In this document: positions 1-3,000 of the stretch, in pieces
Numbering within the stretch: the stretch's first letter is position 1
Layout: the number at the start of each line of letters is the position of its first letter
Source of the DNA: a virus
Taxonomy: Duplodnaviria; Heunggongvirae; Uroviricota; Caudoviricetes
Virus record (IMG/VR): IMGVR_UViG_2671180841_000003
Length of the DNA: 23,911 bases
Direction: 5' to 3' (one strand)
Made by a program: the position numbers

Positions 1-3000
1 TGGGGCTGAATGCGCTGACGCTGACGGATATTACCAAAAATGCAACGTATGGCGTTGAGATAGAAAGTCTGGTGCTGGAGATAAATGCACCGGCATCATC
101 ATAAAAAGTGAGCCAGTCAAATGGAAGGTATCGTTAAACTCACCGGTAGTGTCAGTGGGTCGTCTGAGATGCCTGCATGAGTTATCAGAGCCATCAGTAC
201 TTAACTGGTGGCTTTTTTTATTGTTGTCAGCTTCCGGATAACGGGAGACGGGGTATGTACCAGATGGAAAAAATCACAACAGGTGTGTCATACACCACGT
301 CAGCGGTGGGAACGGGCTACTGGTTCCTGCAGTTGCTGGACAGGGTTTCCCCGTCTCAGTGGGCGGCAATAGGCGTGCTGGGGAGTCTGCTGTTTGGGCT
401 GCTGACATATCTGACTAACCTGTATTTCAAAATCAGAGAGGACCGTCGTAAGGCGGCACGGGGAGAGTAATTCAATGACTCAAAACTATGAACTGATTGT
501 GAAAGGGATCCGCAATTTTGAGAATAAAGTTACGGTAACTTTAGCGTTACGGGACAAAAAACGCTTTGACGGTGAAATTTTTGACCTGGACATCTCGCTG
601 GACCGTGTTGAAGGTGCCGCGCTGGAGTTTTATGAGGCAGCAGCCAGAAGGAGCATCAGACAGGTCTTCCTGGATGTTGCTGCCGGGTTATGTGAAGGGG
701 ATGAGCAGTCGCCGGAAAAGCGCCCCGTAATTTTAGAGGCGCAGGATGTGTTGATAACCTACAGAGGAAAACTACCGGGAATAATTACGGGTTCTCTGAA
801 GAGTCCGCCGAAATGGTAATTTTACCAGCATATTTTTCATCCAGTAATACAGCAAGCCGCCTGAAAGAGTCTTGTTGTTCCTGAGACCATTTGGGATTGC
901 ATGATTCAAACTGGATTGATGCCAGCGTTGATTGCATCTGTTCCCTTGGAATTGAGAATGCCAGATATGAGAAGGCGACGGTAAGGGTATTCACGTCTTC
1001 CCGAAGCCTGGAAATGCTGTCGAGCAACTCCTGTAGAGAAATGGTGTTATTGTCCATAAATAATCCTCATGATTGTATTGACCTGTTAGCAGCCTGAGGC
1101 AACAGGCTGGAACTGATAAACATATCCAGGGCTCAGAAACCGATAAATCCTGATAAATATCCATGAACGCAAAAATCAGATACGGCCTGTCGGCTGCCGT
1201 TCTGGCGCTGATTGCCGCTGGTGCGCCTGCGCCTGACATTCTCGACCAGTTTCTGGATGAAAAGGAAGGTAACCACACCACGGCATACCGTGATGGCGCG
1301 GGTATCTGGACCATCTGCCGCGGTGCCATCCTGGTGGATGGCAAACCTGTCGTTCCGGGCATGAAGTTGTCGAAGGAAAAATGCGACCGGGTTAACGCCA
1401 TTGAGCGTGATAAGGCGCTGGCATGGGTGGAGAAAAACATCAAAGTGCCATTGACCGAACCCCAGAAAGCGGGGATCGCGTCATTCTGTCCGTACAACAT
1501 TGGTCCCGGTAAGTGTTTCCCGTCGACGTTTTACAGACGAATTAATGCAGGTGATCGCAGGGGAGCATGCGAAGCGATTCGCTGGTGGATTAAGGACGGT
1601 GGCAGAGACTGCCGTATTCGCTCAAATAACTGTTACGGTCAGGTATTCCGTCGTGACCAGGAGAGCGCGCTGGCGTGCTGGGGAATCGACAGATAAGCAG
1701 AATATTTTGCTGAAAAATGAGGTTGGCCAACGCGGGCGGATAACACGAAGTCCTGTGAACTGGCAAAACCTAAGTGAATAAAAGTAAAAACCCCGTTTGT
1801 TGGCAGCAAGCGGGGTTTTGTTTTTATGGCAGTAAGCTATGGGAGGCTGCCTTGATTGATTTTAGCAAACTGATTAGGGAGTTGCGACTCATGATTAGTC
1901 AATTACCAAACTGGAAATTTTTGCTGGTCTGGAGCATCCCTTTTTTATGGGTAGTATCCCAGTTAATTGTGGCAATTAAGGGGTAGCTATGTCAGACAAA
2001 CTCATAACGCCGGCAAAGGTCCTGTGTGTGATTGTCGGTATTTCATTTTCACTAATGCTGGTTGCTCTTTTTCTGTCCCTCGCCTGGGTGATGTTGTCTT
2101 CGTCGGGGCTGCTGGGGTGACAGTGACTGATGACATCAGCAGAGCGCTGGCTTTTGCTATTAAGTGGGTGGCTGTTGGTATTGCTGTGTCTCCGATGCTG
2201 TATGGGCTGGCAAAACTGGTCATTGCGCTGAAATCGTGAACTTTAAAAAGATGAGTGCTGAACTTATTCGGGCAATGGCATTTGCCATTCGTATTGTGGC
2301 CATTGCTGTTCTGGTCTGGGCAATCCGTTGGTGGTGATATGAACCGTGTTCTGTGTGTGGTGATTATTGTCATGCTGGTAGCCTGTGGTGTGCTTAGTCT
2401 GGGGCTGAATCATTACCGCGATAACGCCATCACCTACAAAGCGCAGCGCGATAAAAAAGTCAGTGAGCTGAAACTGGCGAATGCCACTATTACTGACATG
2501 CAGCAGCGCCAGCGAGATGTCGCTGCGCTTGATGCCAGATACACGAAGGAATTAGCCGATGCGAGAGCTGAAAATGAAACTCTGCGCGCTGATGTTGCCG
2601 CTGGTCGTAAGCGCCTGCGGGTCAACGCCACCTGCCCCGGTACCGTGCGTGAAGCCACCGGCACCTCCAGCGTGGATAATGCAACCGGCCCCCGACTGGC
2701 AGACACCGCTGAACGGGATTATTTCATCCTCAGAGAACGGTTGATGACAATGCAGAAGCAGCTGGAAGGGGCGCAGGAATATATCCGCACTCAGTGCACT
2801 AAGCTGGCTTTTTATTATCCGGAGGATACATGAAGAAATTACGGGTAACCGTAGAACCTTTTCAGGGAACAATTCCGTTCCGTATTTTGCAGCGTGGTCG
2901 TGTTCTTGTTGAAGGTTCGTTCAGTGGTAAATGTACGCAATTACACTCCCGGACCTTTCAGGTGAATGCCACGAATGAAGAGCTAACCGTGGAGTGTACG

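Follow-up and report, generated by a model that had tools for sequence, protein, structure and literature searches.

An antisense Ybl58-family gene with moron-like traits between ydfR and the endolysin gene of an Escherichia phage

The window analysed here is a stretch of 23,911 nucleotides from a tailed virus of the class Caudoviricetes (IMG/VR record IMGVR_UViG_2671180841_000003). Its left part carries a late lysis operon on the plus strand and a single small gene that faces it. The features of the locus are as follows.

255-470, plus strand: holin S of the phage-21 class II type, a context gene.
475-819, plus strand: ydfR (DUF1327, 114 aa; Pfam PF07041, E 7e-43), the convergent partner, co-directional with the late genes.
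766-816, plus strand: C-terminal motif of the partner, GKLPGIITGSLKSPPKW, of the form I-[TFY]-G-[SDE]-L-x-x-P, with 2-3 further residues before the stop.
785-1057, minus strand: Ybl58 / PHROG 2411 coding sequence, 90 aa with an ATG start, from the ORF listing.
812-1141, no strand assigned: variable stretch of lower GC content, absent in phage 689R5 and replaced in PhiR5_1.
1064-1068, minus strand: Shine-Dalgarno sequence GAGGA, 6 nt before the ATG; GAGGAT is invariant in seven aligned E. coli alleles.
1090-1109, minus strand: leader hairpin CAGCCUG-UUGCCU-CAGGCUG, with equivalent hairpins in homologues.
1119-1131, minus strand: conserved block CCCTGGATATGTT, with a candidate -10 element TATGTT at 1124-1119.
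1163-1696, plus strand: endolysin R (Phage_lysozyme), a context gene.

Inspection of the minus strand showed GAGGA (1068-1064), TTATTT and then the ATG (1057-1055), which confirms the 90-aa ORF with a GAGGA at 6-nt spacing that had been proposed from the sequence. The DUF1327 gene ends at 819, so the convergent overlap is 35 bp (785-819), again as proposed. To reach R, late transcription has to run through the antisense ORF. Over bases 700-1200, the window matches Escherichia phage vB_EcoS-783R2 (ON470626.1, a partial genome) with 100% identity. The record annotates holin S, a DUF1327 protein of the YdfR family, a hypothetical protein on the minus strand, lysozyme R and Rz. The hypothetical protein (URE76779.1) is the product of ORF 785-1057. 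It is the only minus-strand CDS of that record in the left 3 kb, in agreement with the view that no other minus-strand ORF there is convincing. The gene is already annotated and common, and the finding is ordinary in kind.

The product is an acidic 10.2-kDa protein (pI 4.5) that is predicted to be soluble. AlphaFold2, run with a diverse alignment, gave a pLDDT of 81 and three helices (residues 8-35, 38-51, and 59-76), followed by a disordered tail. The last ~10 codons (785-819) run into the DNA of the ydfR 3' end, and this tail was modelled with low confidence and is not conserved in the homologues. The N-terminus, MDNNTISLQELLD, is polar. We found no signal peptide, lipobox or membrane segment in the protein, the highest 19-residue hydropathy being 0.75. 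The original prediction recognized no family. This holds for Pfam and NCBIfam, neither of which gave a match, but PHROG does contain one: residues 1-90 aligned with positions 1-90 of the 90 in the phrog_2411 profile (E 1.1e-58), and UniRef gives the ORF the name Ybl58, with the identical protein on at least 1000 contigs. The match is full-length, and the ORF is a member of this family with no differing feature. Alignments of the family revealed a conserved core (L11, L25, A28, Y31, L32, E51, and AFSYLAF) and a length of about 83-97 aa. No sequence relative was detected in the PDB, a fold search gave no meaningful match, and a literature search found no publication on Ybl58, its function or its structure.

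A profile search of 1.84 billion representative proteins yielded 19 matches. A word-indexed search yielded 127, with lengths of about 80-100 aa and sources confined to Enterobacterales (Escherichia, Shigella, Citrobacter, Atlantibacter, Serratia, Sodalis, Chania, Gibbsiella, and others). Every one of these is labelled hypothetical, in some cases under the name Ybl58. Of 5426 complete E. coli genomes, 1207 (about a fifth) contain DNA relatives; among them are ST131, whose strains carry the identical gene, and BL21, whose copy is about 80% identical in protein. The entry P0061, named ybl58 and 44% identical, was discarded as a distant homologue, as it is actually a double-frameshift allele.

The length of the ORF alone is not beyond chance, because longer shadow ORFs occur on the minus strand of the same 3 kb (169, 123, and 106 aa in the ORF listing). 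Selection was evaluated from nine phage and prophage alleles with a DNA divergence of up to about 15%. The ORF frame gave a pN/pS of 0.285, compared with about 1.0-1.5 for four of the other five frames; among six Serratia orthologues the value fell to 0.07. The value of 0.22 for the plus-strand ORF 891-1097 is an expected artefact, because its wobble positions coincide with those of the ORF frame. That frame contains 0-4 stops at varying places in the homologues, and we rejected it as a wobble-matched shadow frame that is closed in the distant ones. Of 19 homologues, 17 keep the ORF 785-1057 frame open, and each of the other two has a single nonsense mutation.

A first scan of viral contigs returned mostly identical copies and added little diversity. 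Frame disruption in relatives, named in the original prediction as an outcome that would refute it, turned out to be rare there: of 36 distinct full ydfR-ORF-R modules, all had intact ydfR and R and 35 had an intact ORF. Two of seven sampled chromosomal copies (six from E. coli, one from E. ruysiae) nevertheless carry one nonsense codon each. These mutations, S35* and Q59* (E. coli prophage loci L019 1501-1773 and L021 1501-1773), are independent, and the flanking ydfR and lysozyme genes are intact. This implies that the gene is dispensable in some prophages.

Purifying selection, a length kept down to about 30% identity, and the confident fold lift the ORF above chance. An unexpressed chance or shadow ORF would fit with the other long minus-strand ORFs of the same 3 kb, which shadow plus-strand genes, and with the failure of the scan to find a canonical promoter. 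However, most of ORF 785-1057 has no plus-strand gene opposite to it, and the strong Shine-Dalgarno sequence and the independent genomic contexts add to the three properties above. The pN/pS and open-frame comparisons effectively refute the shadow explanation, which we regard as extremely improbable. ORF 785-1057 is very probably a real, independently transcribed gene.

A strict sigma-70 scan of 1058-1162 found no promoter. The relaxed scan returned only TTGCCT-19-TACAAT, whose start would fall inside the Shine-Dalgarno sequence. A better candidate may be the block CCCTGG(A/T)TATGTT (1131-1119), which is common to the E. coli, Citrobacter, and Atlantibacter copies and to the unrelated ORF of PhiR5_1. 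TATGTT retains the key -10 positions (TA...T) and is paired with a -35 hexamer matching at only 3 of 6 positions; the start would be near 1111-1113. A LexA box, a sigma-54 promoter and a PhoP box were also considered upstream of the gene by eye, and none fits.

A hairpin follows the CCCTGGATATGTT-type block at a distance of about 8-12 nt in every phage copy. The other copies have an 8-bp stem closed by a GUGGG(A) or another loop. In five non-E. coli sequences the stem was 100% paired, with 4 of the 8 pairs changing on both sides; only 1 of 500 shuffles reached the stem score of this set, in which most double changes come from a single sequence (L113) and may be one replacement event. The U.G and G.U pairs of the stem become C.A on the late strand. 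Because these pairs exist only on the strand of the ORF, the transcript is expected on that strand, and the pattern points to an RNA starting upstream of the hairpin. We found no terminator for the gene on its own strand. An Rfam search of 1-3600 matched no family.

The stretch that holds the gene is variable. Its GC content is 44% (820-1141), whereas S and Rz have 54%, R has 55%, and the partner ydfR has 48%. Phage 689R5 has the order S-ydfR-R without the ORF: its homology to the window extends to about 814 and resumes at 1141, and about 55 unrelated bases stand in place of the stretch. In PhiR5_1 (L005 2359-2740), homology is lost at 811 and regained at 1119, and a different antisense ORF of 86 aa (PHROG 2572) occupies the same slot between the DUF1327 gene and R in the same orientation. 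This ORF shares with the Ybl58 gene the upstream CCCTGGATATGTT block, a leader with a GTGGG-loop hairpin, and the convergent overlap with the DUF1327 gene. It differs in that its DUF1327 partner has 211 aa and in that the ORF has no detectable sequence relationship to Ybl58. Homology between the two was rejected at an hhalign probability of 0.3%. The DUF1823 label on the PhiR5_1 ORF scores 15.3 bits against a Pfam cut-off of 25, and DUF1823 (PF08853) did not match the window ORF. The slot behind the CCCTGGATATGTT block appears to accept alternative payloads.

From its sequence context, ORF 785-1057 looks like a moron, an autonomous accessory gene in a late lysis operon with the opposite orientation. 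The moron-type layout suggested at the outset was borne out by the insertion, deletion and replacement pattern and by the lower GC content; for the promoter there is only the candidate -10-like block. The accompanying comparison with lambda bor applies to position and not to product. Like bor/iss, the Ybl58 gene is oriented against the late genes, lies in or beside the lysis cassette, and is present or absent among relatives. On the other hand, bor follows Rz, whereas the Ybl58 gene lies between ydfR and R, and Bor/Iss is a lipoprotein with a signal peptide and a lipobox, whereas Ybl58 is a soluble acidic helical protein and not homologous. Some related prophages carry both the Ybl58 gene and iss (iss in L018). 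Expression of bor in lysogens is established.

In phage genomes, the homologues occupy four different positions in late operons and invariably run against the late genes. Besides the position between ydfR and R, a Citrobacter homologue lies between a gene for a 238-aa DUF1327-like protein and a different holin-endolysin-Rz set, Atlantibacter prophages have it between the tail genes M and L, and metagenomic contigs between the tape-measure gene (TMP) and M. Each of the four architectures places the ORF convergent with a gene that runs in the late direction, the two overlapping by 4-35 nt. Inspection of these otherwise dissimilar partners showed that they all end with the same motif, I-[TFY]-G-[SDE]-L-x-x-P: GKLPGIITGSLKSPPKW in YdfR, GKIRNEKITGSLRVPMKL in Citrobacter, GNIFSDQIFGDLKKPPSY in Atlantibacter, and GTVYSAKIYGELMKPVC in the metagenome (window 766-816, L010 5239-5295, L024 4261-4320, and L115 1221-1280). 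The partners encode the motif with different codons, which places its conservation in the protein and not in the DNA. In 689R5, a motif-bearing YdfR is present in the absence of Ybl58, and Ybl58 homologues occur without any partner in Serratia, in Sodalis, on plasmids of the AIDA type, and in the iha island. The association is, across the sequences compared, recurrent but not obligatory.

In three other contexts and in phiSTEC1575-Stx2k, a late-strand intrinsic terminator was found right after the upstream block of the Ybl58 gene and directly ahead of the late gene that follows. The coordinates of these terminators, all on the late strand, are given below; in the window, no late-strand terminator was found at the equivalent place.

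L024, 3856-3873, late strand: intrinsic terminator.
L010, 4859-4876, late strand: intrinsic terminator.
L115, 834-851, late strand: intrinsic terminator.
L003, about 2990-3015, late strand: intrinsic terminator.

Homologues were also found downstream of AIDA-type autotransporter genes on plasmids, and beside iha in a pathogenicity island (L008 4001-4349, E. coli CM2). The iha-island copy is homologous to window 840-1185, and its small ORF is intact. As the homology includes the first 23 nt of R, we consider this copy a relic of a lysis cassette and rejected it as independent cargo. Six Serratia species and one Enterobacterales MAG carry the gene in the syntenic order pyrC-dinI-X-bssS-solA (L011-L017, about 4600-5710). 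No gene is known at the dinI-bssS position in E. coli K-12. The Serratia gene (e.g. BHU62_00195) has about 35% identity to the window ORF (profile E 1e-23), the same length, and the same predicted helices. It lacks a phage context, a convergent partner and the CCCTGGATATGTT block, and it is under the stronger constraint (pN/pS 0.07). Judged by these comparisons, Ybl58 is a vertically inherited chromosomal gene in Serratia, and the family looks like a host gene captured by phages. Since homologues occur in tail operons and as chromosomal genes, its function does not appear to be tied to lysis.

With these data we attempted to outline how the gene might work. A weak sigma-70-type promoter of its own, with the -10 element TATGTT (1124-1119), would give an mRNA whose leader of ~55 nt has a stem-loop at its 5' end; stem-loops of that kind typically stabilize mRNA. 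Because the gene faces the Q-dependent late transcript, Ybl58 synthesis would be possible while late transcription is off, either in the lysogen or before late onset. This arrangement makes expression in lysogens plausible. After late onset, head-on transcription and full-length antisense pairing would shut it off. The product has no recognizable DNA-binding, membrane or enzymatic features. It would most likely bind another protein, a host factor and/or the C-terminal tail of the partner. A host factor is suggested by the vertical inheritance of the family as a chromosomal gene in Serratia; any particular target, taken singly, would be a poor bet. For this picture as a whole (a moron-type gene with its own weak promoter, expression outside the late phase, and action through protein binding) we estimate a probability of roughly 0.55.

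The picture competes with a narrower one, in which Ybl58 binds or counteracts the motif-ending partner as part of a two-gene module that serves the lytic programme and not the lysogen, with a role such as lysis timing or the control of RNA decay. Such a module would account for the convergence and slight overlap with a motif-ending partner in all four architectures, where the N-termini of the partners are unrelated, and for the late-strand terminator that closes the module past the candidate Ybl58 promoter in three contexts and in the Stx2k phage. In a 2026 paper, YdfR of K-12 was reported to bind RNase E, at its N-terminal catalytic half, and RNA was reported to co-purify with YdfR (PMC13232886), which would also fit. 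However, motif-bearing YdfR is common without Ybl58, as in 689R5, and Ybl58 persists partnerless in Serratia, in Sodalis, on the AIDA-type plasmids, and in the iha island. We consider the module unlikely. In a more elaborate form, Ybl58 and the motif-ending partner would be antagonists reprogramming a host process, for example RNA decay, in a mobile convergent two-gene switch inserted at no fewer than four late-operon places. Ybl58 would be made in the lysogen; after induction the partner would be made and Ybl58 silenced by the antisense late transcript. We find this form distinctly improbable. If it were true, the shared promoter and leader with swappable ORFs would represent a dedicated antisense expression slot.

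Two further explanations concern the protein and the RNA, respectively. Many small prophage morons are defence, superinfection-exclusion or anti-defence factors, and Ybl58 shares with them its frequency in prophages and a variable slot with alternative payloads; like many anti-defence proteins, it is small, acidic, and helical. A search of the PADLOC-DB defence profiles gave 0 families at E <= 1, and a strongly constrained gene at a fixed Serratia locus fits poorly with the turnover of an arms race. A role of this kind is, in our judgement, quite unlikely. Alternatively, the antisense RNA or the convergent transcription itself could tune R (and ydfR), with the reading frame being secondary. 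Between ydfR and R, the late mRNA would be complementary to this transcript throughout, and in PhiR5_1 the candidate promoter and the leader were kept while the ORF was swapped for an unrelated one. Against this stand the clear selection at the protein level, the confident fold, and the homologues that are lone chromosomal genes with nothing opposite to them. We rate this explanation as very unlikely.

If the moron-type gene described above is expressed in lysogens, Ybl58 would modify host physiology in many prophage carriers, having been captured from a chromosomal gene family of enterobacteria. The novelty is modest and consists of the recurrent convergent module, the leader shared by two unrelated ORFs, and the chromosomal orthologues in Serratia.

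Some neighbouring features of the window were also observed. Just upstream of the holin start (255), a hairpin with a T-run on the plus strand (187-215) is a candidate for the late terminator tR', which is read through by Q antitermination. Between R and Rz lies an insertion (1697-2338) with a strong plus-strand intrinsic terminator (1787-1819), after which come three or four tiny hydrophobic ORFs in tandem (about 1891-1986, 1989-2120, 2123-2239, and 2252-2337). Two of the tiny ORFs have similar sequences, one being RALAFAIKWVAVGIAV, and comparable small ORFs precede Rz in L005, L019, and L020. Further downstream, just ahead of the gene for the terminase small subunit, the GenBank record of vB_EcoS-783R2 annotates a DUF3950 gene on the minus strand and an HNH homing-endonuclease gene (window 3244-3851).
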